From: Octopus sinensis
Taxonomy: Eukaryota
Direction: 5' to 3'
Assembly (NCBI RefSeq): GCF_006345805.1
Contig: NC_042998.1
Location: 128,898,001 to 128,962,000 of the forward strand
DNA length: 64,000 nucleotides
The notes under the pieces were generated by a model. The model worked only from the letters and a program-made list of their open reading frames with translations, was not told the origin of the DNA and ran no database searches. Of this stretch, positions 6,192 through 63,011 are shown piece after piece. Each line of letters begins with the position of its first letter. Position 1 is the stretch's first letter. A program made the translations under genes and the position numbers.

Positions 6192-6745
6192 AACACTCAG
6201 AGAGTGCAAACTTCTGCCAAGGCAACACCAATATCCTCTCAATGATTAGCCAGAGCTGATTTTTAAAATGAGAATATCTGAAATAAACTCAACTGCTCTC
6301 ACAAACGAGAATACTAAAAATGAACCCGACGGCTCTCAAAAATTAAGTAAAGAAACTAGAAAAATAATCTAGAATCCTTGTCTTGTATATGATCAATCCT
6401 AATGGTAGTTATGGACTGTGAAGGTGGCTGTAGAAAATTTAGTAACAGTAATAAATAGTTTATCCTTAGTTAAAGTTAACAAATTCACCATTCAAAATAG
6501 TTACAGCCCAAAGGGAGATAATTGAGAAAGACTTGAAAGTTAACATAAGATCTTAATCATGTAAAGTAAATATTGTCCGGTAGTGGATTGATCCCCAAAT
6601 CTAATCAGTTTGTGCCAGTCACAAGGCCAAACATCTCTGAAAGTTTCATCTGAATCCATGTTGTGGTACTTGAAATATCTTATCCACAGATAAACAAGCA
6701 TGTCTGAAAGCAATACCTCCACCTTTGCTAAGGCAGAGGTAATAA
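6192..6745 (-). mobile_element. Non-autonomous Helentron/DINE-like (or Crypton-like) element
   Basis: Reverse complement of the two ends of 17895-19313: subterminal repeats TACCTCCACC..GGCAGAGGTA and terminal hairpin CACTCAGAGAGTG. Confidence 0.6.
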
Positions 6746-6758
6746 TGATAGTCATTAT

Positions 6759-7422
6759 GGTTTCAAATTTTGGCACAAGGTCAGCAGTTTTGTAGTAGGG
6801 AGATCAGTGGAATACATCAACCTTAGTACTCAACTGGTACTTATTTTATTAACCCTGAAAAGAAGAAAGGCAAAGTCGATCTTGGCAAAATTTGAACTCA
6901 AAACATAAAGACAACATTTTGCCTGGCATGTTAATGGTTCTGCCATCTCAGTACTTTAATACTACTACTACTACTAATACTAATAATAATAATGATTTCA
7001 AATTTTGGCACAAGGCCAGCAATTTCAGTACTTATTTTATCAATCCAGAAAGGATGAAAGTCAAAGTCAACTCCGGCGGAATTTGAACTCAGAACATAAA
7101 GATGGTTGAAATGCCACTAAGCACTTTGTCCTGCATGTTAACGATTCTGCCATCTCGCTGCCTTAATAATAATAATAATAGTAGTAGTAGTAGTAGTAAT
7201 AATGATAATCCTTTCTACTATAGGCACAAGGCTTGAAATTTGGGGGAAGGAGGTAAGTCGATTACAGCAACCCCAGTGCGTAACTGGTACTTATGTTACT
7301 GACTCTGGGAGGATGAAAGGCAAAGTTGACCTTTGCAGAATTTGAACTCAGAACGTAAGGATGGACAAAATATCGCTAGTGTTTTTGCACAGCATAACAA
7401 CGGTGCTGCCATCACAGTGCCT
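6759..7422 (-). mobile_element. Three head-to-tail SINE family A copies (6759-6950, 6995-7163, 7207-7422)
   Basis: Each has the GAAAGGATGAAAG(G/T)CAAAGT..GAATTTGAACTCA core; separated by (TAA/TAC/TAG)n tracts. Confidence 0.85.
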
Positions 7423-8584
7423 TAATGATGATAATGATAAAAATAACAATAATAATAAAAATAATGATAATGATAAAACCAACTGAAAGCTAAGAAACCA
7501 ATAAAGACAAACAAAAAATAGAGTATGACAATAACTGGAATATAAATAACTAAAAATGCTAAATGAATAAAGTAATATGGTTAAACTGAAAATCTAAAAT
7601 ATCTCATCTAAAACAACTACTACTACTACTACTACCACCACCACCACCATGTAACTAAATCTCCCCCTCTTAAAGAATGTGAATATACTATAATAATCTC
7701 TTGAAAGATTAATATATGTTTGTGTGTGTGTGTGTGTATGTCTGCATGTGTGTATGTGTGTGTGTCTATGCATATGTGTGTTTATACATACGTGTGTGTG
7801 TGTGTGTGTGTGTATACATGTGTGTATGTGTATACATATATCTGACTATGTGTGATTCTGTGTGTATATTTATTTATTTAAATTAAAGAAGATAACAAAT
7901 GGAAGTAAAAGGAAAATGTTAATAGGGAGTCAAAATGATGTTATAGAATTCCTGACGAAAGCAAATTTTAGAATTCTGTGTATTCATTGCCAATGGCTTT
8001 TCCTATAGGAATCAGCGATAATCTTTCTTTTGAGACGTAACTTTGGCTCCTTCTGCTTTAGAAATGGTGCCGTGTGTTTTGGAATTTCCATTTGCATTCC
8101 AATTTTTATTTCTTAATTTTTTTTAATTTTCTGTTTAAGAAATTTTGTTGTGTAGTTATGTTCTTTTTTTTTGTTTGTTTTACTTAGTGTTTTTACTTTT
8201 GTTTTCACTGTTTGCTTATTTTATTTTTTATTTATTTGATGTTTTTTTTAAACCTAGTAATTGATGGAAAATTAGCTTGTATTCTTGTTCTGCAAATCAT
8301 GTTATGATTTCTTTTACAATATTGGCATCAAGTGAAAAGAGGTCTGGCTTTGGTATCATCAATGAAGTTATTGGTGCTGGTTTTGATGTGCTGATCAACA
8401 CTTGCAGTGAGGCGACTTAGAGCCTACTCTTTTTTTGCTTGCTTACAACGATACTACTGCTATGGATGGGTGTTAATGAGAAAATCTCTCTGTGCTCACT
8501 GAACCTGTTTGAAATAATAGCCAAGCCTTCCTCAAATTACTCTTCATCACCTTAAAGAAGAAGGTCACGTTGGTTGATGTAGTA

Positions 8585-11117: not shown

Positions 11118-11312
11118 GTAAGTATTTTCTCTTGTATTCATGTGTTAGTCTCTTTTTTTATAGCTTTTCCACAACATTGATGCTTTTTTTTTGCCATAAC
11201 ACCATATTATGCAAATGTCAGTTTGTCTCTGTTTTTATTGCTGTTGTTTAACCCCAAGTCAGCACTGACTGGACAAACCTCTGCTTGTGTATGCTGTGTC
11301 TGTTTCTGTGTT

Positions 11313-11834
11313 TTCTAACTAGAAAGGGTATGGCCTGGTCAGCCTATAATGATATGCATAAGATCTGGTCATCAAATCTAAGTAGAGATTTCAAACTTAA
11401 AATCTTCAAAGCCACAGTCGAACCAATTCTACTATATGGCTCAGAAACCTGGACGTTATCAAAGAAGCTTGAGAGGCAGTTGGATGGAACTTACACTCAC
11501 CTCCTTATGAGAGCTCAAAATCTCTCATGGAAGCGTCATCCAACCAAAGTATAAATATATGGGAAATTACCACCTGTATCATCTCTTGTGAAAGGTAGAA
11601 GAGTCCAGTTTGCTGGACATTGTTGTAGAGCTGAAAACGAGGTAATTTCTATTCTTCTCCTCTGGAAGCCATCTGCTTGCGATACTAGAGGGCACACACT
11701 CTCCTACCCTGGTGTAATCTCCAGGGATACAGGCATCCAGCAACAGGACCTTCGTAATGCTATGATGGACCGTGAAGTCTGGCGTAGCATAGTAAATTCC
11801 ATTGTCTCGACCACGGTCGAACAATGATGAATGA
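11313..11834 (+). mobile_element. 5'-truncated RTE-clade LINE 3' end, relatively young intronic insertion
   Basis: KLKIFKATVEPILLYGSETWTL...RRVQFAGHC...AMMDREVWRSIV; (TGA)-type tail; 12-bp TSD TGTTTCTGTGTT at 11301-11312 and 11835-11846. Confidence 0.9.
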
Positions 11835-28599: not shown

Positions 28600-29208
28600 T
28601 ATTTCCGTCGCTACATTCTGAGTTCAAATTCCGCCGAAGTCGAATTGCCTTTCATCTTTTCGGAGTCGATAAATTAAGTACCTGTTGAGTACTGAGGTCG
28701 ACGTAATCAACTATCTCCCTTCCCCAAAATTTCAGGCCTTGTGCCTATAGTAGAAATGATTATTTCCCCTATTTCAGGTGGCGAGCTGGCAGAAACGTTA
28801 GCACGCCAAGTGAAATGCTTAGCTGTATTTCGTCTGCCGCTACGTTCTGAGTTCAAATTCCGCCGATGTCGACTTTGCCTTTCATCCTTTCGGGGTCGAT
28901 TAAATAAGTACCAGTTACGCACTGGGGTCGATATAGTCGACTTAATCCCTTTGTCTGTCCTTGTTTGTCCCCACTATGTTTAGCCCCTTGTGGGTAATAA
29001 AGAAATAAGAATTGTTTGCATGTCTGACAAAATGCTTAGTGGTATTTCTTCCATCCTTACGTTCTGAGTTCAAATTCCGCCGACGTTGATTTTGCTTTCA
29101 TCCTTTCGAGATCGATAAAGTAAGTATTACCTTGGCACTGGGGTTGATGTAATAGACTAGCCCCTTCCACCCAAATTTCTATCTTTGTGCTGACAGTAGA
29201 AAGAATTA
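28600..29208 (+). mobile_element. Three head-to-tail SINE family A copies (28600-28762, 28777-29008, 29020-29208)
   Basis: Repeated TTCTGAGTTCAAATTCCGCCGA core. Confidence 0.88.
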
Positions 29209-30704
29209 TTTCCCCTTAGTACTATTCCATTCTCATTCTGTCTCTTCAGCTGTTTATTGTTACGTCTTACTGCCTGTAAAAAATGCAGACAATGCAAGAC
29301 TCTTACGTTCTCTGAATTTTTTTATCGCATCTTTTAATTTGATTCCTTTAAAATTAATATAAAAAAAAAAACAAAAAAAAAAAAACCGCAAAATAAGATA
29401 AAGAGAAATTATTTCGAGCGAAGATTGAACCCGTATCGCAGATCTTTGTTTGCCAGTAGCTTAATTCTCTTACAACAGAGGCAATGGAAGTTAACACAGA
29501 TTTTTAACAATCGCAACAGCAACACCAACAACAACAATGACCACAAAAATTGATGGCGTCAGTTTTTAAAGACTGTTTGCTGAATAGTATCAAGACGGTC
29601 TTCTCCAGCTTCGCATCATCGTCGTCATCATTGTCATCAATCATTATCGTCACCACCACCACCACCACCACCACCACTACCACTATGCTCACTTCTACTC
29701 TTCCTCCTCCTCCTCCTCGTTCCTCTTTCTTCTTCTTCTTCTTCTTCTTCTTCTTCTTCCCTATACTCCTTCCTCTTCACCAATGACAAGCTCTCATAAG
29801 AATTTTGACGATCTAAGTGTGTGTGTCAAAAGAATTAGTTGAAAGAAAAAAGACAAAATGAAATAAAAAAAAAAGAATAATAATAATAATAATAATAAAA
29901 AAAATGGTATCTGATCTGACATGACAATAAATCATCTCGAATTGACTAGTTAAGTGTTTTGGAAAGATTCAATCTGATTTGGCAGAGTTTTTGAAGTTGT
30001 TTCCTCGTTACAAATGAAAAAAAAAAAAAAGAAGGAAAAAAAAAAGAATAAAAAATTCTTCCAGTTCTTCGTTCTTCTAGTGATTTTTATCTGACCCGAC
30101 TTGGATTTTTCCAATCGATCAAAGAAGACACTACAAGGTAAAGAGAAAAAAAACCGAAAATAAATGAAATAAAAATGAAAATAAAACACACGCCTAGGAA
30201 AAAAAAAAAAAATAGAGAAAAGAAATCCTTGGTAATGTTCTCTCTCGCTCATTATTTCCCCTATTTACCATTCCCTTTTCGTTCTGTCTCTTCATCTATT
30301 TATTGTTATGTCTCTCCGCCTCTTACGTTGTCTGAAAATTTTTTTTTCCGCATCCTTAAATATGATTCCTTTAAAACCAACGTAAATTCTAAAAAGCCGT
30401 AAAGAATTTGATTGAATCATTTGGTGTCGTAATTTAAAAAAAACTAAGGTTTAGGCTGAATTGTAGCGATGGGTATAGAATTAGATCTATCTATCTAGAT
30501 ATCTATCTATCTGTCTGTCTGTCAACTAATCAATGTATCTATCGTTCTCATTCTGAATCGACTACTCACTAAACTTTATCGATATTCTCCTCCTGCCGCC
30601 GATTTCTTTCTCTCTATGTCTCTCAGTATGTATATAGATTTATATATATACGTGCATACATACACACACACACGGACACATGCGCGCGTGCACACACATA
30701 AATG

Positions 30705-31803: not shown

Positions 31804-31891
<88 letters not shown>

Positions 31892-31898
<7 letters not shown>

Positions 31899-32242
31899 TT
31901 GTATACTGTCAACTTAACGTGACAGTCCCGTATGGGAATTACACCACCGCTGTTTAGCCCTAGGAAGCATCGAACGCTTCCTGTCGGCTTTGACACATTT
32001 TCTGTGTCCTTTGTGAAGGGGAGGCAAGCACCCCCACCAGCCAAGATTCACACCTGAGGACATGCATGTTTCTGGGTCTTAAGAATCTTGGCTGGTGGGG
32101 GTGCTTGCCTCCCTTCACAAATAAGGACACAGAAAATGTGTCAAAGCCGACAGGAAGCGTTCGATGCTTCCTAGGGCTAAACAGCGGTGGTGTAATTCCC
32201 TTACAGGACTGTCACGTTAAGTTGACAGTATACAACCACTCT
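31892..32242. repeat. Inverted repeat: ~158-bp arms (31892-32049, 32083-32242), 33-bp spacer
   Basis: Arms are near-identical reverse complements; the spacer on the minus strand is the 3' half of the hammerhead. Confidence 0.92.
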
Positions 32243-32290
32243 ATCGCTCCACCATTTAGAAATTTGAGACATTTAGAAAGTTAGTATTAG

Positions 32291-32329
<39 letters not shown>

Positions 32330-32470
32330 TTAGAAATATTGAATTTCTAAATGTCTCAGAGAGACATGAGCGGTGGTGGGGCGATATAGTGGCTGTATAC
32401 TGTCAACTCAACGTGACGCTCCACCATCGCTCATGTCTCTCTGAGACATTTAGAAATTCAATATTTCTAA
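32330..32470. repeat. Inverted repeat: 54-bp arms (32330-32383, 32417-32470)
   Basis: TTAGAAATATTGAATTTCTAAATGTCTCAGAGAGACATGAGCG / CGCTCATGTCTCTCTGAGACATTTAGAAATTCAATATTTCTAA. Confidence 0.92.
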
Positions 32471-32770
32471 TTTTGGTAACCAGTGAATAAATATCACTGA
32501 AAATATTATATATTTGCAAAGCGGTTGCAGCCATCTCAGCTAGCAGGACTTGCTACCCTGGACTGATGACGGGTAAGACCCAGAAACATGCATGTCTTCA
32601 GGTGCTAATCCTAGCTGGCGGGGGTGCTTGCCTCCTATTTGCAAATATAAGGACACAGGAAATGTGTCAAAGCCGACAGGAAGTGTCGATGCTTCCTAGG
32701 GCTAAATAGCGGTGATGTGATTCCCTTTACGGGATTGTCACGTTCAGTTGACAGTATTCAACCACTATAT
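32417..32770 (+). mobile_element. 354-bp hammerhead-containing unit (retrozyme / Penelope pseudo-LTR like)
   Basis: Its end (CCACTATAT) is joined to its start (CGC[T/C]CCACCA) in two neighbouring partial copies (32231-32255 on +, ~32370-32395 on -), so the unit is circularly permuted. Confidence 0.7.
32557..32602 (+). ncRNA. Type I hammerhead ribozyme
   Basis: Stem I CCUGGA/UUCAGG; CUGAUGA (32563-32569); stem II GGGU-AAG-ACCC; GAAA (32583-32586); palindromic stem III ACAUGCAUGU; GUC cleavage triplet ending 32596. Distal stem I extension CAGCUAG/CUAGCUG (32537-32543/32611-32617). Confidence 0.8.
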
Positions 32771-33224: not shown

Positions 33225-33793
33225 TACTTTATTCATCGATTACTGCCGAGAGAACGAAAGGCAAAGTTGATCTCAGCTGTATTTGAACTTAGAGCACAGA
33301 GAGCCGGAACGAACACCTGAGGGTGATCTATCCAACGTTATAACGATTCAGCCAATTCTCCGCTTTCTGTCTTGTAATATTGGATTCAAATTTTGGCACG
33401 AGGCCAGCAACTTTGGGGTTAGGGCGAAGGTCGATTATGTTGATACCAGTGCTCAGCTGATACTTATTTTATCGACCCTGAAATGAGGAAAGGCAAAGTC
33501 GACCCCGGCGGAACTTGAACTCAGAATCTAAAGACGGACGAAATGCCGCTAAGCATTTGGCCCGGCACGTTAACGACTCTGGTAGCTCGCCGCTTTTTAA
33601 AGCATATACTGGTTTCAAATTTTGGCACAAGATCAGTAATTTCAGGGGAAGGGAGTTAAGTCCATTAAATCGACCCCGAAAGGATGAAGGGCAAAGTCGA
33701 CACCGGCAGATTTTGAACTCGGAACGTAAAAAACAGACAAAATGCCGCTAAGCATGTGTCCCGGCGTGCTAACAATTCTGCCAGCTCGCCACC
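33225..33793 (-). mobile_element. Three head-to-tail SINE family A copies
   Basis: Cores at ~33255, ~33490 and ~33680; heads end at 33363, 33593 and 33793. Confidence 0.85.
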
Positions 33794-34237
33794 TTTAACA
33801 TACTAATAAATTAAACACAGTAATATACTGTATCTAATTCAGTGTTGTCCTTACAAACATTGGTTTTATGCGTTAAAATAAGAAAGTGCAAGTGTCTGTT
33901 TCGATAGACTGCTTGATTATCAATCAACAGGTCAACGTTACATATTCTATCACCAACACTGTCGCGTCTGTGACCCGATTCCTTACTTCATAGCAACTGA
34001 GTCTATTCACTTTGATTTTGCATTTGCCCACAACCACTACCCATGCAATATATACCCGTGTGCATTCGTGCCTACGTCCATTTGGGTGAATGTGGTGGCA
34101 GGTCAAAAGTGTGTGGGTATAGGTAGTTATATATAGGGTATTATTAGAATAACAGCAGCATGCAAAGAAATTCATACAGTTAACTACACAAATAATATGA
34201 ACAATTCTGATACATAACCATATATATATATTTATAA

Positions 34238-39480: not shown

Positions 39481-39482
<2 letters not shown>

Positions 39483-40243
39483 TCAAAGCAGAAACAGAGG
39501 GATTTTTAATTGCAGCACAAGACCAAAGCCTCCCCACCAGAAATTACCAAAAAAATGTAATGAAAAGAAATATTACAAGTAACTGCAGAATATGTGGAGA
39601 TGGACAAGAAACAATAAATCATATTATCTCTAGCTGCCCAGTCCTGGCTAAGAAGGAATATATTCACAGACATGACAGAGTTGGAACCTACATACATTGG
39701 AAGCTATGCCAACATTATGGAATAACAACAGAAAAAAGATGGTATAGGCACACACCAGAAAAGGTCACAGAAAACGAGAAAGCAACCATACTCTGGGATA
39801 TGCCGATACACACAGATAGAGAAATTAAGGCCAACAGACCAGATATAGTTGTCAGAGATCATGAAGAAAAAAAAATGCTTTCTAATTGATGTATCAATAC
39901 CGGCAGATGACAACGTTACTCTAAAAGAAATGGAGAAACTCTCAAAATACAAAGACCTGGAAATAGAGGTAACTAGAATGTGGAATCTGAAAACAGAAAC
40001 AATTCCTATCATAGTGCATTAGGCATGATAAAAAAATATTCAGACAAATACATAACGAAAACACCAGGACTTACAAACACATATAACATACAGAAAATTG
40101 CACTACTAGGCCTGCACACATCCTACGCAGAACACTTTCCATACAATAACCATCAGAGCATCACAACAAATCACAGCACATACCCAAGGCACACAGAGCT
40201 GCGCTCGGTAGTGAAGTGAAAGCACGCTATAAAAATAAAACTA

Positions 40244-40336: not shown

Positions 40337-40372
<36 letters not shown>

Positions 40373-40397
40373 TAATAATAATAATAATAATATAATA

Positions 40398-40836
40398 ATA
40401 CTTTCAACTGAAAGCACAAGGCCTTAGATTTTGAGGGGAGGGATTAAGTCGATTACAGCGACCCCAGTACATAACTGGTGTTAATTTTATCGATCCCGAA
40501 AGGATGAAAGGCAAAGTCGATCTCGGCGGTATTTGAACTCAGAACGTAGATAGCCGGAACAAAGTAACGCAGACTATTTTGTTCGATGTTCAAATGATTT
40601 TGCCAGGTCGCCGCCATTTTTGTTTCATATTTTGGCACAAGGCTAGTAATTTTAGAAGGAAGGGGTTAGTCGATAATATCGACCCCAGTAGTTGACTGGT
40701 AATTTATTTTATCGAACCCAGAGAGATTAAAGGCAAATTTTGATCTCAGCTGGATTTGAACTCAGAATATAAAAAGCTTGAACAAATACTACAACATTTT
40801 TTATCCGGTACTCTAACCACCCTACCAATCCACTGC
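40398..40836 (-). mobile_element. Two head-to-tail SINE family A copies
   Basis: Cores at ~40500 and ~40730. Confidence 0.85.
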
Positions 40837-43453: not shown

Positions 43454-44188
43454 CAGGATTTTTCAACCATTTTATACCTGTGCACCTCTTTGATACCTGT
43501 TTTACTTGAATGAACTTCCCTAGTCATTCGATATTTATAAAATCATATTATATTCTATAATTAACTATCAAAGCCTTGAAACTCTACTCTCTCCAGCGTC
43601 GCCGTGAGCGGTACATCATTTGTACGATGTGGAGAATATACCGCCAACTTTGCCCAAACGACCTGAACATAAGCTTCAAGGTTCATCCAAGACTGGGACC
43701 ACGGGCCATACGTCCCCTGCCCAATTCAAGATCACAGCATACATATACACTACAACATAATTTCTTTTCCTCAACAGGCCCTGCCCTATTTAACATTGTC
43801 CCGAAAGAGATCAAAGATGAACAGGATCCCATCAACTTTAAACGGAGTCTGGATAGATTCCTTCAAAGAATACCAGATAAGCCACCCATAATTGGATACA
43901 ACTCACCCAACAAAAACTCACTACTTGAATGGACCATAAGCAAAACTTGACTTAAACAGGATTCAAATAATCCTATCAGGTGGTGCTATTAAGTTAGACA
44001 TGGCCTGGACCAATCATTGGTCGAAACACATCTAAGTTTTATCTAAGTTTTATCATTAAGAATTGTATAAAAAATTTGCTAAAATATTTTGTGTATTGTT
44101 GAAGTATAACCAATTTATTGCAGATAAATTTTAACAAAATCTTATATTGATCCCCAAGTGCCGTATGGAGCCTGGTTGCGAATCCCAG
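43454..44188. mobile_element. hAT (Charlie-type) MITE interrupted by a CR1 fragment
   Basis: Imperfect TIRs CAGGATTTTTCAACCA / TGGTTGCGAATCCCAG; 8-bp TSD CTCTACGC / CTCTACAC. Confidence 0.7.
43568..44055 (+). mobile_element. CR1-like LINE 3' end
   Basis: LKLYSLQRRRERY..GPALFNIVPKEIK..FKRSLDRFLQRIPDKP; tandem tail (ATCTAAGTTTT)x2. Confidence 0.88.
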
Positions 44189-51362: not shown

Positions 51363-52343
51363 CTAGCCAGCTAGATAAATGCGTTATTTATGGATATCCA
51401 AATATTATATAACAACAACCATTTCATATATAATAACATACTGCTAAGAGGACCGAACTACTGAGTGTGTGGTATCTTGGGGATGGTAACAAGATACGAA
51501 CCTCTGACCTTTCGTTTCGTTATATACATATAGAATACCTAATCAGTTCGGCCACCTGCGTTTTCTAAGCTACTTTGGAGATCGAAAGACCTTCTACATC
51601 AGAGAATATATTAGGATAGGAGAATATTATGAAGTTTAAATCAACCAAAGCATGGCATACGACTCTTGGTAATCTTGTGGATAAATTACCATCCAGAGTA
51701 TAATGTACCTAAGATAAGGATTCACTGGAGGACAAGACCTAAGAATACTATCAGAAAATACAGGGCTGTGTTGCTATCACATTTTGGTAGATTACAATTT
51801 GGTGAAACGATGCTTGTTTGAATATGTATTTTTGAATCTGTCAAAAGCATTTAACTTTCCATAGAGAAGTCTGGAATATTTTCAGAAGAGTGTGATTGCC
51901 GGCCGAAATTCGTGGATCTTTACTGCCATTTTTTCATAAGGGTGATGGCTTAACTTGTTGCTGGAGGGCAGATATCTGAAACATTCAGGGTAAAGATGGC
52001 AGATAGACAAGGCTATGTCCTGGTTCCTGTACTGTTTAATATCCAAGTATGACCACAATGTTGTTTAGATAAATGGAACAGGCGGTAGGAAGTATTTTCA
52101 GCATTAGAGCGTTGCAGATCCGCACCAAACTCTGCTTCAGTAGATCACACCCCGCAAAACCTAAGGGTCATCATCTAACAACGTAACAGAAACAAATATA
52201 TACTATAAGCCCACGAATTAGTATAACCAACGAATTAGTAAAGAGACTCTCTTTATTATAAAATACAGATCCCTTTTGAACGCGTCTACAACAAACGACA
52301 TATCCACCACGGCCCTAGAATAATACACACACACACGTAAATA

Positions 52344-53251
52344 TTAAAAAACTATAGTACATATCAATTTTGCTAGGTTGAATGGGATATTCATTCTGGT
52401 GTGTCTGGGGTGGCATGAATTGAACGGTAGATATTGCTTGAGATCCATGGGCTTATAGTATATATCTGTTTCTATTACGTTGTTAGATTTCTTAATGAGA
52501 ATATCGAGGAAAGGAAGTTGTTGATGACTATATTCCATCGTGAATTGAATGTTTACGTCAAGTCCTTTTATAAGTGCTTGGAATTCTTTAAGTTTCTCTG
52601 TATTTTCATGCCAAAGAATGAAACAGTCATCCAGGTATCTCTTCCAGTTATATTCTATGTAGAGGGAGAATGGACTGCCGTATTTTTCTAGAACCTTACG
52701 ATAAAGACTAATTTCTAGATATCCCATGACTAGGTTAGCAAAGGAGGGGGCCATTCTCGTACCCATCGCAGTCCCCGATTTTTGTCGGTAGAAGTTGTCT
52801 TTGAAGACGAAGTAGTTACTTTCCAGGATGAATTTTAGCCTTTCTGTCACGAATTCTTTTTTGATGCGATGTTGGAGTTCGTTGGCGTAATTCTCTAGCC
52901 AGAATTGAATTGCCTCTATTCCTAGGTTGTGGGGGATATTGGAATAGAGGTTGACTACATTGAAGGATAGTAGTAGGGTGCTTTTGTTTATTGTTTCAGG
53001 AAGGTGATTGAGCATATCCAGGTCGTCCCTTATATAGTTTTGACATGCTTGAAGAATGGTTTTAAGAGGGTATCTAAAAAGTTACTGAAGCGGTGGTTTT
53101 CGCATTCGGGACCTGCTATTATAGGTCTCAATTTGAGGTCATTAGGAGTAGGGACTTTGATTATTATGTCTGTGGCTATCTTGCATGCGTTACTTATTTT
53201 CTCACTTTTGAGTATCTTGAGAATACCGTAAAATTGACTGGTTTTACTCAA
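52344..53251 (-). mobile_element. Penelope-like element reverse transcriptase fragment (one frameshift near 53035)
   Basis: FYGILKILK..LRPIIAGP..SFNVVNLYSNIPH..NYFVF..YRQKSGTAMGTRMAPSFANL..WKRYLDD..LPFLDI..DIYYKP..QYLPFNSCHP: the PLE RT and thumb motif series. Confidence 0.93.
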
Positions 53252-53660
53252 GAGATTCCCAAGAATTCATTAAAAAACAGTCCCAATTACTGCTATAATC
53301 CACGACTCACTTTTAGGTCACTTCACCATTTAATACCCTACTACTATCATATTACTTACATTCCTTCTTATTCTCCCTTCTCTTTCTCCTTCTTCTTCGT
53401 CTTCTTCCTCTCCGCCACCTCCTTCCTAACTTTACCACTATTGCTATTTAGAATAACACCTACGCAAATTTTATAAAAAAACATTCAAAAGAGATGTCTC
53501 AAGAATTCAATCACTACTACCATCCACAACGGGTCACTTTCAGGACACTTGACCATTTAACATACTACTATCATGGCACCCGCATTCTTCTTCTTCTTCT
53601 TCTTCTTCTTCCCTACCAAGAATTCATAACGAAGAGTAAACAAGAGTAAACAAGAGAGAC

Positions 53661-55117: not shown

Positions 55118-56765
55118 GTTACCCATCTATCTGTCTGTTCCTGTGTTTGTGTATATGCACACCCACCGACACACCCACGTCATTTAGTCACGATGTAAGA
55201 GCGGTACGCATGAACATTAGGGTTTCTAAGTCTGGTGGGAGAAGTAGGAGGCTATCCTCAAATCAGAGACCTGGCCAAATGCTTGAAACAAAGTAGTCTT
55301 ATCTAAAGGCACCCAAGGACCATATGATAGTAATAAACCAAGCGACAGATTATGCCGCTGTTTGTCTGTCTCTCTCTTGGATTTAAGTCCCAGCCTGTAT
55401 TTTCCAGACAGACTAACTTTGTAAAAGACGGTGGTTTAGAGCGTTGTACAAAATGCCTCGCAGTATTTGTTCTGACTCTTTGTGTCAGCACAAAAAAAGT
55501 GAGTTGCTGTTATTTATTTGCTACTGTTTGAAGGCATATTAACTCGTAGTGTGAGTCATGGCTTATCACCCTTCACCCGTTGCAATGATATAATTCTGTT
55601 ACATAAACGGGCTTTTCTCTTGTCTTTCTGGGACCCGAAATCCTAGGCAATTTGATTCCTGGGATTGTATTCTATTTCCTGGGAATTATAAAATTTATAA
55701 CAATGTTAAGGTGATCGAATGGTTCAAGAAACAATCTTTTGCAACATTTAAAGATCGTTCGCAAGGATATTTTCTCAGAAACGAGCACTAGATGAACCTC
55801 CTACGAAGAGAATCGACCAACAGAAAATATCTTTCTGTAAGGAAAAATAGACAGAAAATTATATTAAATTCAAATTAGTTGCTATTGATGGATTTCCCCC
55901 GAATGCAACAGTTAAAAGCGATTTTTTTTAAGGAAAGCTATTCTAAAGGTTTGGTTTTATTACAGAATGGTTCACATTAAACGCAGATTATTCTATGTCA
56001 ATATGATTTGAAAGAAAAAAATTGTAATTGGTGAGTTAAATGGAAGAACTATGAAAAATTTAGTATTTCTTTTGAAGATTATACATCGTTGCGTAATCGC
56101 AGATATTTGATCGTAAATGTATTTATGACCTGTTAAAATTTGGAATTTAGAAATGATCAGAATTTATGGAGGTGTACCTACCAAAAAAATATCATTTGAA
56201 GCAAAACTTACTATATTCAACCTTGACTTGGAAAAAATATATATAGTTATAGTGGCAACTGATGGAGCAAGTGTCATGTTCAAATTCGGCAACAATATGA
56301 ATTATGTTATGCACATGGATTTCATTTGACTGTGGTGTTGCTTACAAGAAAATTGAATCTAATTGTGATGAATATAATTTAGATAATGGTACTTGTAATC
56401 ACAAGGACCTACTTGAAGGTACATTCGAGGATGATCATTAGAATTTAGATTCTGCAGTTGTGAATGTGGTTAATAACACTGGTCAACAGCCAATTTTCAC
56501 CAGGGATATTATATGGTGTTTTATATGTAGTTTTGTCCGTAGATTTCAAACATGTAATTTTCCTTCTATCAGGCACAGTTTTTTTGATGAACTCCCATCA
56601 GCAGTATCGCTTCACGTAAACGTCTTATACAGGTAAATTCTGACTTCTGTTATATAACTATTTGTATTTATTTTGTAATTTTATGTTTTCATAATCTTTT
56701 CTTTTTATAAATTTTACTTTCTGTTTAATGTGCCAAGTCATCATCATCATCAAATTCTACTCAGG

Positions 56766-58446
56766 ATGTCAAGGCATAGCAAGAAGAGTCCTGATATATT
56801 TTGTCATGTCTGTGGTTCATTTACCACCAAAGCTCAGCAACGTGCCATCACAAGTGAAATCAAGAAGATCTACCATTTATACTTTGGCTGCTCTCTTGGG
56901 GATCAAGATAAGAATTGGGCTCTGCACATCATCTGCTCAGCTTGTTCAAATGGCATAAGGGGTTGGCTAAATAAGAGGAAGAGAGCAATGCCATTTGAAA
57001 TACCTATGATATGGAGAGAGCCAAAGGATCATTTCATGGACTGTTATTTCTGCAACGTTAATGTATGCGGGTTTACTGTAAAGACCAAGCATAAGATTGT
57101 GTATCTCAACTTGGAATCAGCAAGAAAACCAGTACCACACAACGATGATGATCTTCCCATTCCAATACCACCAGAAAATAGCCTTCAGATGTCTGACGAA
57201 GATGTATTTCCTGAAGAAAATACTACCACTGTGGAAGACACCGAAGTGGATGCAGATTTCAGGATTGAAAATGAAGACGTACCACAGAAATTTTCTCAAG
57301 GAGAATTAAAGGATTTAGTTAGACTTGTCATTGTTGAAGGATAAAACTAAACTATTAGCGTCTCGCCTACAAGAAAAGTGTCTGCTTCAGAAAGATGTTT
57401 GTATTACTCATTTTAGGAAGAGAAATAGGGATCTGACTTCATGCTTCTCTGTTGATGGACTACTTTGTTTCAGTAATAACAGTGATGAGTTATTTCGCTC
57501 TTAGTTCCAAGAGCATAATCCAGCTGAATGGCGCTTATTCATTGATTCATCTAACAGAAGCCTCAATGTAGTACTACTACACAACGGCAATAAGAAACCA
57601 TCTATTCCCATAGGACATTCAGTGCACATGAAGGAGTGTTATGAAAACATGCAAGTACTCCTCAATGCCATAAAGTATACAAAATACAGTTGGAAAATAT
57701 GTGGAGACTTGAAGGTGATTGGAATGTTGATGGGAATGCAATCTGGATTCACGAAATATTGTTGCTTTTTATGCCTTATGGGACAGTCGTGCAACTAACA
57801 AGCACTATGTGCAATCAGAGTGGCCTTTGCGAAAATCATATGAGCCGAGAGTTTCTAGCGTCCAGAATAAGCCACTTTTAAACCCAGAAACTGTTCTTCT
57901 TCCCCTTCTTCACATAAAGCATGGCCTCACGAAACAATTCATGAAGCCACTTTCCAGGAAAAGCTCAAAAGGTTTTGAATATGTGAAGGCCAAATTTCCA
58001 AAAATCACTGAGGCAAGACTGAAGGAGGGCGTATTCATAGGTCCCTAGTTAAAAGAACTCCTGAAGGACAACCACTTCATCACAGCACTAGATGAGATTG
58101 AGCTTAAAGCCTGGGAAACCTTTAAATGACTCTGTGAAAATTTCCTAGGCAACAAGAGATCTCTAGAGTTTAGAAATGGAGTGTGTTTTCTAGTCTCCTA
58201 CGCTGCAATGTGCTGTCGGATGTCCCTAAAAGTCCACTTTCTTGATTCACATCAGGAATGTTTTGCAGATAACCTGGAGCAGTGTCTGATGAGCAAGGGG
58301 AACGCTTTCATCAAGATATTGCATCGATGGAACAACGCTATCAAGGGTTTTGGAATTCAGGAATGTTAGATGACTACTGTTGGATGCTATACAGGGATGA
58401 ACCTGAGACAAAACACCATAGAAAGTCCAAATCTCAAAGATTTTAA
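56766..58446 (+). pseudogene. Chapaev3 transposase, disrupted by several stops and frameshifts
   Basis: PDIFCHVCG..YFGCSLGDQDKNW..WREPKDHFMDCYFC; WRLFIDSS; CGDLKV..KYCCFLC; LHIKHGL; SDEQGERFHQDI..RYQGFW..DYCW. Confidence 0.9.
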
Positions 58447-62325: not shown

Positions 62326-63011
62326 CTAGCAGCTAAGCACGGTCGGTTTGGATGATGTAGCTGTAAAACCTGCCCTGGGTAAGCATTCGACTTGTTTGGA
62401 CACACATTAAAAAACTATTTTAGAATGACTTTTTTCTGCCAAAATGCAAAAAAAACTGATCAGTAAAAAAAGAGAAACAACCAAGATTCAACCAAATCAA
62501 AAAATAAACCCAAATACTAAGCGAACAAAGATGAACCATCCCACATCCATTGCGTGAGCACACGCACGCACACACACACACACATTCACATACCCCACAG
62601 ATATATTCACACAGAGTTGAAACGCTGTTTGATTTATTTTTTAGCGTACAATTTTCATCACTACCAAGTACAACATCATCCCTTCCTTCCTTATTCATCC
62701 ATCACCTTTCCTTTCTCATTCAAAAAACAAGAGTATTATTGTAGTAGATTATCTCGGTAACCATGGGAGCTATGAAAAAATATGACATCACGCCTTCTTT
62801 CCTTATTCATCTATCACCACTTCCTTTCTCATTCATAAACACAAGAGTATTATTATAGTAGATTACCTCGGTAACTATGAGAGCTATGAAAAAATACAAA
62901 ACCCAGCACCACCACCGGATCATTCTACACATGTGTAATTTTTCGCGCAATTCCACCCAGCCGTTTGGCCGTGAATCCCAAGACAATAACGAATCGCCCA
63001 TGTCAAATCTT

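Follow-up and report, generated by a model that had tools for sequence, protein, structure and literature searches.

What is the 354-nt hammerhead-bearing unit that lies among TA microsatellites in the octopus window analysed here (the whole stretch of 64,000 nt), and which machinery brought it there? A preliminary description read it as a candidate retrozyme, a non-coding unit with an intact ribozyme whose end joins its own start and which might be mobilised by Penelope reverse transcriptase (RT). The unit is probably a non-coding hammerhead member of a many-copy family and, as such, a non-autonomous derivative of Penelope elements (PLEs) of the non-LTR-retrozyme type. Its copies were likely placed in (TA)n tracts by the reverse transcriptase-endonuclease of a PLE. 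We call the unit retrozyme-type and not a proven retrozyme: of the two features that define an active retrozyme, consecutive whole hammerheads are absent from the locus, and RNA circles are putative.

Table 1. Features of the hammerhead locus and of the distant RT relic. Positions are those of the window; unit positions count from 32417.
Feature	Position	Strand	Remarks
Type I hammerhead core, helices I-III	32557..32602	+	descriptor scan; predicted cut after C32596
Helix I as continued beyond an internal loop	32537..32618	+	predicted fold; part of a rod at ~32508-32650
Perfect 10-nt palindrome forming helix III	32586..32595	+	predicted intermolecular duplex in a double hammerhead
Whole 354-nt unit, forward arm of insertion B	32417..32770	+	tail 1-54, spacer, hammerhead, 3' part; ends in CCAC, then (TA)n ('short' 3' end)
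'Tail', unit 1-54, two hairpins	32417..32470	+	follows the unit end in partial copies; bears the 'long' 3' end of the family
Inverted arm of insertion B, 5'-truncated	32330..32417	-	unit 321-354 and tail 1-54; ends at (TA)n
Inverted arm of insertion A	31894..32081	-	unit 158-350, 86.6% identical to the unit; ends (CT)n/(TA)n
Forward arm of insertion A	32083..32292	+	from ~unit 190 via the end-to-start join into a variant tail; ends (TA)n
(TA)n(AG)n repeat flanking insertion A on its left	31804..31895		
(TA)17 separating insertions A and B	32293..32327		
Broken RT of a PLE, probably canonical	52344..53263	-	in its relatives, GIY-YIG domain at the C terminus and zinc finger in the linker

The ribozyme has the CUGANGA/GAAA/UH core and the three helices of a type I hammerhead, with helix I open. 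CUGAUGA occupies 32563-32569, GAAA 32583-32586 and UC 32595-32596. Helix I pairs 32557-32562 with 32597-32602 (6 bp, including one G-U) and, in the predicted fold, is prolonged beyond an internal loop as a long rod, in line with the earlier statement that this stem can be extended. Helix II pairs 32571-32574 with 32578-32581 around a 3-nt loop, and helix III, which has three pairs (32586-32588 with 32593-32595) and a 4-nt loop, lies inside the palindrome. At the base of helix II, C32570 faces A32582, which confirms the non-canonical pair noticed earlier; the usual 10.1-11.1 pair at this position is G-C.

How much weight can the motif bear? A descriptor scan of both strands of the window gives a single match, at 32563, so that the locus does hold one complete ribozyme, as had been claimed. 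A loose descriptor finds matches in 69 of 200 dinucleotide shuffles of the window. The strict descriptor finds none in 200; its thresholds (helix I of at least 6, helix II of at least 3 and helix III of at least 2 further pairs) were chosen after the match was known. The scan and the strict shuffles thus confirm a complete type I hammerhead. The Rfam hammerhead models, which had been proposed as a check, find no match in the window, neither at the gathering score nor at E <= 10. The matches that Rfam does return there by E-value are hairpin or microsatellite artefacts, lie far under the gathering scores and were rejected. No tRNA was found in the 64-kb window.

The unit itself has a GC content of 43.8% and, read as a circle, contains no ATG open reading frame (ORF) beyond 47 aa on the plus strand and 53 aa on the minus strand, in agreement with its earlier description as non-coding. 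No ORF remnant occurs within the 354 nt, and the RT plus GIY-YIG ORF that would mark an autonomous PLE is found neither in the unit nor adjoining it. Its length is within the range of short non-coding retrozymes (~150-450 nt), as are its GC content below 50% and its ORFs of at most 53 aa. The predicted fold is far more stable than that of shuffled sequences (z = -7.18; 0 of 100 shuffles as stable). Metazoan non-LTR retrozymes are described as 350-390 nt long in mussel and 330-350 nt in axolotl, with a GC content below 50% (Cervera and de la Pena 2020, PMC7229834). The size, low GC content and self-paired fold of the unit fit this description, and the 6-bp helix I and the short palindromic helix III are further likenesses. 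The mismatch at the base of helix II also has a counterpart in the axolotl motif HHR_Amex2 of the same paper, where it is U/U instead of C/A.

In which form is the unit present at this locus? BLAST and repeat finding resolve four arms arranged as two head-to-head pairs, insertions A and B, with microsatellite between and around them. The arms of insertion A share 153 identities, with mismatches at 3 of 156 positions and two small indels. Those of insertion B differ in 5 of 88 common letters, being 96% complementary over 54 nt and identical in 31 of 34 letters of the head. A and B are 84-87% identical over their common parts, which suggests two separate events within a single tract. One arm of each pair ends just after CCAC (unit ~349-354) and the other is ~55 nt longer; the last letters of the CCAC-type ends are common with the microsatellite. 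The end of the unit joins its own start at 32244/32245 on the plus strand and at 32384/32383 on the minus strand, so that the earlier claim of closure in two neighbouring partial copies holds. These copies are not arranged in tandem; they are mostly inverted and belong to two separate insertions. The frame of the unit needs a similar amendment. Its size and closure stand, and since the 3' ends of the family lie at about unit 349-354 and 52-58, the original 1-354 frame is in turn one permutation of the unit.

Two of the four arms, the inverted arm of A and the forward arm of B, span the predicted cut site, the former holding the 3' half of the hammerhead. This implies that the template was an uncut multimer or a re-ligated circle and not a linear cut monomer. 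The forward arm of B equals the unit length within 6 nt, in this one case. Two consecutive units with whole hammerheads are absent from the locus, which is a dead-end copy with one whole hammerhead and as such falls outside the 'active' class that Li, Clavereau and Pollet (2026, bioRxiv 10.64898/2026.07.22.740005) define by two consecutive whole hammerheads. Described retrozymes form tandem dimers to multimers, and their RNA circles are documented by northern blot (PMC7229834). The copies seen here are instead dispersed, truncated, inverted pairs with a tail.

Which machinery leaves such copies? Both insertions show 5' truncation, an adjacent inverted copy, a tail at one end and an AT-rich microsatellite target. 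This locus pattern matches that of PLEs as described by Craig et al. (2021, bioRxiv 2021.04.23.441226), in which elements are 5'-truncated, carry an adjacent inverted copy and a one-end tail, and occupy (TA)n targets. An anole PLE cuts and extends both target strands in vitro and prefers AT-rich DNA, and its tail is the stretch between two internal RT starts (Frangieh et al. 2024, PMC11167929). The unit resembles canonical EN+ PLEs, as portrayed in PMC4209133, Craig et al. 2021 and PMC11167929, in that its type I hammerhead is followed by two possible 3' ends, its partner arm is inverted and 5'-truncated, and its target is AT-rich or microsatellite DNA. Unlike these elements, it has no ORF from tail to hammerhead; its tail is ~55 nt long, compared with 30-40 nt in PLEs, and its helix III is fuller than that of minimal PLE hammerheads. 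The footprint thus makes the suggested mobilisation by Penelope RT likely. We propose that master copies in partial tandem elsewhere would be transcribed and that a PLE protein would nick both strands of AT-rich DNA. Reverse transcription would then begin after unit ~350 or after unit ~54, two internal positions ~55 nt apart. The outcome would be an inverted pair of mostly 5'-truncated arms, one of them tailed.

Is this architecture a property of one locus or of a family? Parts of the unit are present in 20 of the 24 public sequencing runs listed, across four organisms; none of the runs listed as containing it is labelled as RNA. The contigs of four of the 24 runs were aligned to the unit at 80% likeness. 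The two DNA runs, from two organisms, yield 2836 and 1749 family contigs, and two putative RNA runs, so classified by guess, yield 381 and 71, which are no evidence of expression, since RNA ends are not visible in contigs. The unit was also sought by exact pattern in collections of viral sequences, prokaryote genomes and metagenomes, with 0 matches. Both DNA runs contain joints of the unit's end to its start (2 of the 8 rows of one joint listing and 2 of the 3 of another), one of which has 31 intervening letters similar to the end of the unit. In six of the 8 rows of the first listing, opposite strands are joined at breakpoints that differ, which indicates that the inverted architecture is family-wide. 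Among the 24 loose-end rows listed (393 more exist), one lies behind 32474, with 11 AT-rich contigs at an agreement of 0.53, and another behind 32468 leads into (TA)n in one contig; both mark the end of the tail as an insertion end.

The contigs also connect the tail with the hammerhead. Three of the 32 records listed, out of a set with 5046 more, bridge the two (32440-32569, 32441-32558 and 32442-32628) and carry 22, 9 and 6 other letters, respectively, a divergence of 3-17%. Their tail side comprises 29-31 letters up to 32470, or 33-35 up to 32474, right at the limit of 31 set by the alignment tool; one of the three may be this same locus. Variants at 32478-32493, just past the tail, are found in 25-30 contigs per DNA run. 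Together, the joints and bridging records indicate, for more than one lineage, an ORF-free unit that closes at ~354 nt, and the head-to-tail closure read from the window is thereby extended to the family. None of the records listed spans the whole unit or two hammerheads; the contigs are short and cannot show arrays. In the four runs, the lowest spacer bin upstream of the hammerhead reaches 0.8-1.3% of the summed depth of the tail and 3-18% of that of the hammerhead, where summed depth is not copy number and the divergence of the window copy contributes. This uneven depth fits a population of mostly truncated copies, and most of the family DNA appears to be 5'-truncated. Given the low spacer depth, only a minority of the family may have the closed 354-nt form. 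An alternative upstream sequence precedes 32623 in 23 contigs of X1, 12 of X5 and 2 of X14 and points to sub-families that differ upstream, in which helix I of the hammerhead or the parent element may be different.

The listed variation largely avoids the core of the hammerhead. Among the 40 variant rows listed, beyond which there are 43 more, only one of the 38 variable positions falls inside the 46-nt hammerhead, namely 32574; this avoidance of the core has a P of 0.027 over the unit and of 0.004 over the span of the listed rows. Even this position is a peculiarity of the window copy, which has U where ~96-100% of the depth reads C in all four runs. The C/A mismatch does not change among the listed variant rows, and copy A of the window and two loose ends keep the same letters, so that it is probably a family trait. 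At helix I, one X5 contig has G at the last base of the 5' strand and copy A has C opposite that base; the pair would be compensatory, but its two halves are on different molecules.

How would such a ribozyme work? In the predicted fold of the monomer, linear or circular, the core is buried (helix III has a probability of 0.0) and the active fold can be imposed at a cost of 3.9 kcal/mol; the family letter at 32574 makes no difference to this. When two copies of a fragment of 68, 82 or 146 nt are folded together, they are predicted to form a double hammerhead in which the core is unpaired and a 10-bp intermolecular helix III has a probability of 0.83-0.99. Two whole units co-fold without a double hammerhead, and the energy gain of dimerisation (-8.9) is as large in 72 of 200 shuffles. 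The models are consistent with a ribozyme that folds poorly as a monomer and would work as a double hammerhead via its palindromic helix III. Such a mode is described for metazoan type I motifs (PMC4209133) and for axolotl retrozymes (PMC7229834). One of nine Xenopus retrozyme dimers tested was cleaved, according to Li et al. 2026. Cleavage is dispensable for insertion of the anole PLE, for which uncut RNA is reported as the main template (PMC11167929).

The RT relic that had been noticed at 52.3-53.2 kb is present, with the refined limits and minus-strand orientation of Table 1. It matches Pfam RVT_1 with an E-value of 5e-6, below the cut-off, and Atlas clusters at 0.94-0.97. It has 222 longer relatives at E <= 1e-20, including proteins of ~750 aa; the best named relative, from Octopus bimaculoides, is 58% identical, and others reach 64%. 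The relic would be of the same class as the likely helper. Its neighbourhood and the unit show no DNA similarity (best E 0.42), and the relic is for this reason no evidence of partnership; as for the idea that Penelope RT moved the unit, it is the footprint and not this neighbour that speaks for it. A 41-nt inverted duplicate (95%) of part of the relic, 52173-52213 versus 52448-52488, suggests that the relic itself has a PLE-type inverted arrangement.

An alignment of 29 RT relatives led to 54 PLE loci, many of them redundant or incomplete, which are apparently animal DNA inside microbial assemblies. Single-protein searches, which gave two weak matches in one case and none in the other, lie outside this count, and an alignment search of viral contigs found no related PLE locus. 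A hammerhead descriptor match occurs in 8 of the 54 coding-PLE loci, one of them doubtful, and the animal-type hammerhead PLEs in assemblies labelled bacterial are probably contamination by host DNA. In the closest locus, L003 (1838-1886), the hammerhead lies ~200 nt past the ORF; its helix I has 6 bp, helix II starts from a U/U mismatch, and helix III is palindromic. Because this hammerhead is so much like that of the unit, ribozyme shape cannot separate a retrozyme from a pseudo-LTR (pLTR). None of 56 PLE loci of other hosts resembles the unit in DNA, and no helper with DNA in common with the unit was found among the relic neighbourhood and the fetched loci. Another locus, L014, contains 894-nt perfect inverted arms at 403-2200 with a hammerhead in each.

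Could the family simply be the pseudo-LTR of a coding PLE, with most copies being truncated 3' ends and the closed 354-nt unit an occasional by-product that lost its ORF? We consider this unlikely. It would account for a footprint that is common to any PLE, for the eight coding loci with a hammerhead match and the close likeness of L003, for the very low spacer depth and for the second 5' sequence before 32623 in 23, 12 and 2 contigs. However, the tail continues into the spacer in dozens of contigs and in records diverged by 3-17%, from two organisms; the best-supported loose end behind the tail is a heterogeneous AT-rich flank with no single path to an ORF; and the unit is devoid of an ORF remnant. 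A very improbable alternative is an AT-targeting DNA transposon or MITE-like foldback, in which the arms would be terminal inverted repeats and the hammerhead a product of chance. It is already largely refuted by the variable inner breakpoints and the two alternative outer ends of the arms, by the circular permutation of the unit, by the absence of strict descriptor matches in 200 shuffles and by listed variation that avoids the core, even though the long inverted repeats in a TA context, the lack of an Rfam hammerhead match and the loose descriptor matches in 69 of 200 shuffles speak for it.

The preferred reading, a non-autonomous PLE derivative of retrozyme type, also has a stronger form, and the probabilities of the two overlap. 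Long tandem arrays elsewhere might produce an abundant ~354-nt circle that templates all insertions, as in a classical, highly expressed retrozyme; this would be the strong version of the preliminary description. We regard this form as doubtful. The uneven depth fits dispersed truncated copies and not arrays as the main form, the anole PLE used mainly uncut RNA with cleavage dispensable, and most Xenopus dimers (all except one of nine) were not cleaved. In its favour are the exact closure, the match of size, GC content and fold with mussel and axolotl retrozymes, the two arms that span the cut site, and the single arm of one turn within 6 nt. A further version, which we hold to be improbable, is a very high-copy cephalopod retrozyme with a circular RNA that a Penelope protein copies into DNA, starting at either of two fixed positions within it. 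If so, the ends of its thousands of insertions would document the route by which retrozyme circles of animals reach the genome; exact copies of one turn, of unit length like the forward arm of B, would be among them, and a hammerhead active only as a dimer would spare the circle from self-cutting.

The class is not new. Retrozymes of this kind have been described since 2020 from coral, mussel and axolotl (PMC7229834), and the unit would extend retrozyme-type elements to cephalopods. The literature surveyed, outside which lay most subscription papers and repeat databases, contains no report of a cephalopod hammerhead or retrozyme; the supplements of PMC7229834 and of two preprints may list a cephalopod case. 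The accessible text of an O. vulgaris repeat paper, together with one supplement (PMC13282606), holds neither the word 'ribozyme' nor a library sequence. Li et al. 2026 propose that retrozymes are non-autonomous PLE derivatives, and their account has in common with ours a pLTR-like hammerhead unit moved by PLE proteins and dispersed monomers that are often the majority. They argue from pLTR homology and from co-occurrence in Xenopus, where our link is an insertion footprint, and the 35 genomes that they cover include no mollusc in the description of the main text. So far, the machinery that moves animal retrozymes has been argued on evidence of these two types (PMC7761336; Li et al. 2026). A family in which a hammerhead unit the size of a retrozyme is combined with the complete Penelope footprint provides a direct genomic test of the mobilising machinery.

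Other repeats and ORF remnants also occur in the window. SINE-like clusters at 6573-7477, 28603-29353, 33246-33809 and 40356-40787 have 23-38 self-matches each, and these abundant repeats presumably resemble octopod SINE families. ORF remnants at 11252-11827 (+), 39482-39889 (-) and 43561-43950 (-) are similar to what we take to be LINE-type retrotransposon proteins. Broken ORFs at 56679-58048 (+) presumably derive from a DNA-transposon protein; their first part shares 80% identity with a Macrobrachium rosenbergii protein over 97% of 192 aa, and the next matches reach at most 75%. The similarity of this putative transposase to a prawn protein in an octopod host hints at horizontal transfer. 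Finally, 62673-62896 consists of two tandem copies of a 114-nt unit with 89% matches.
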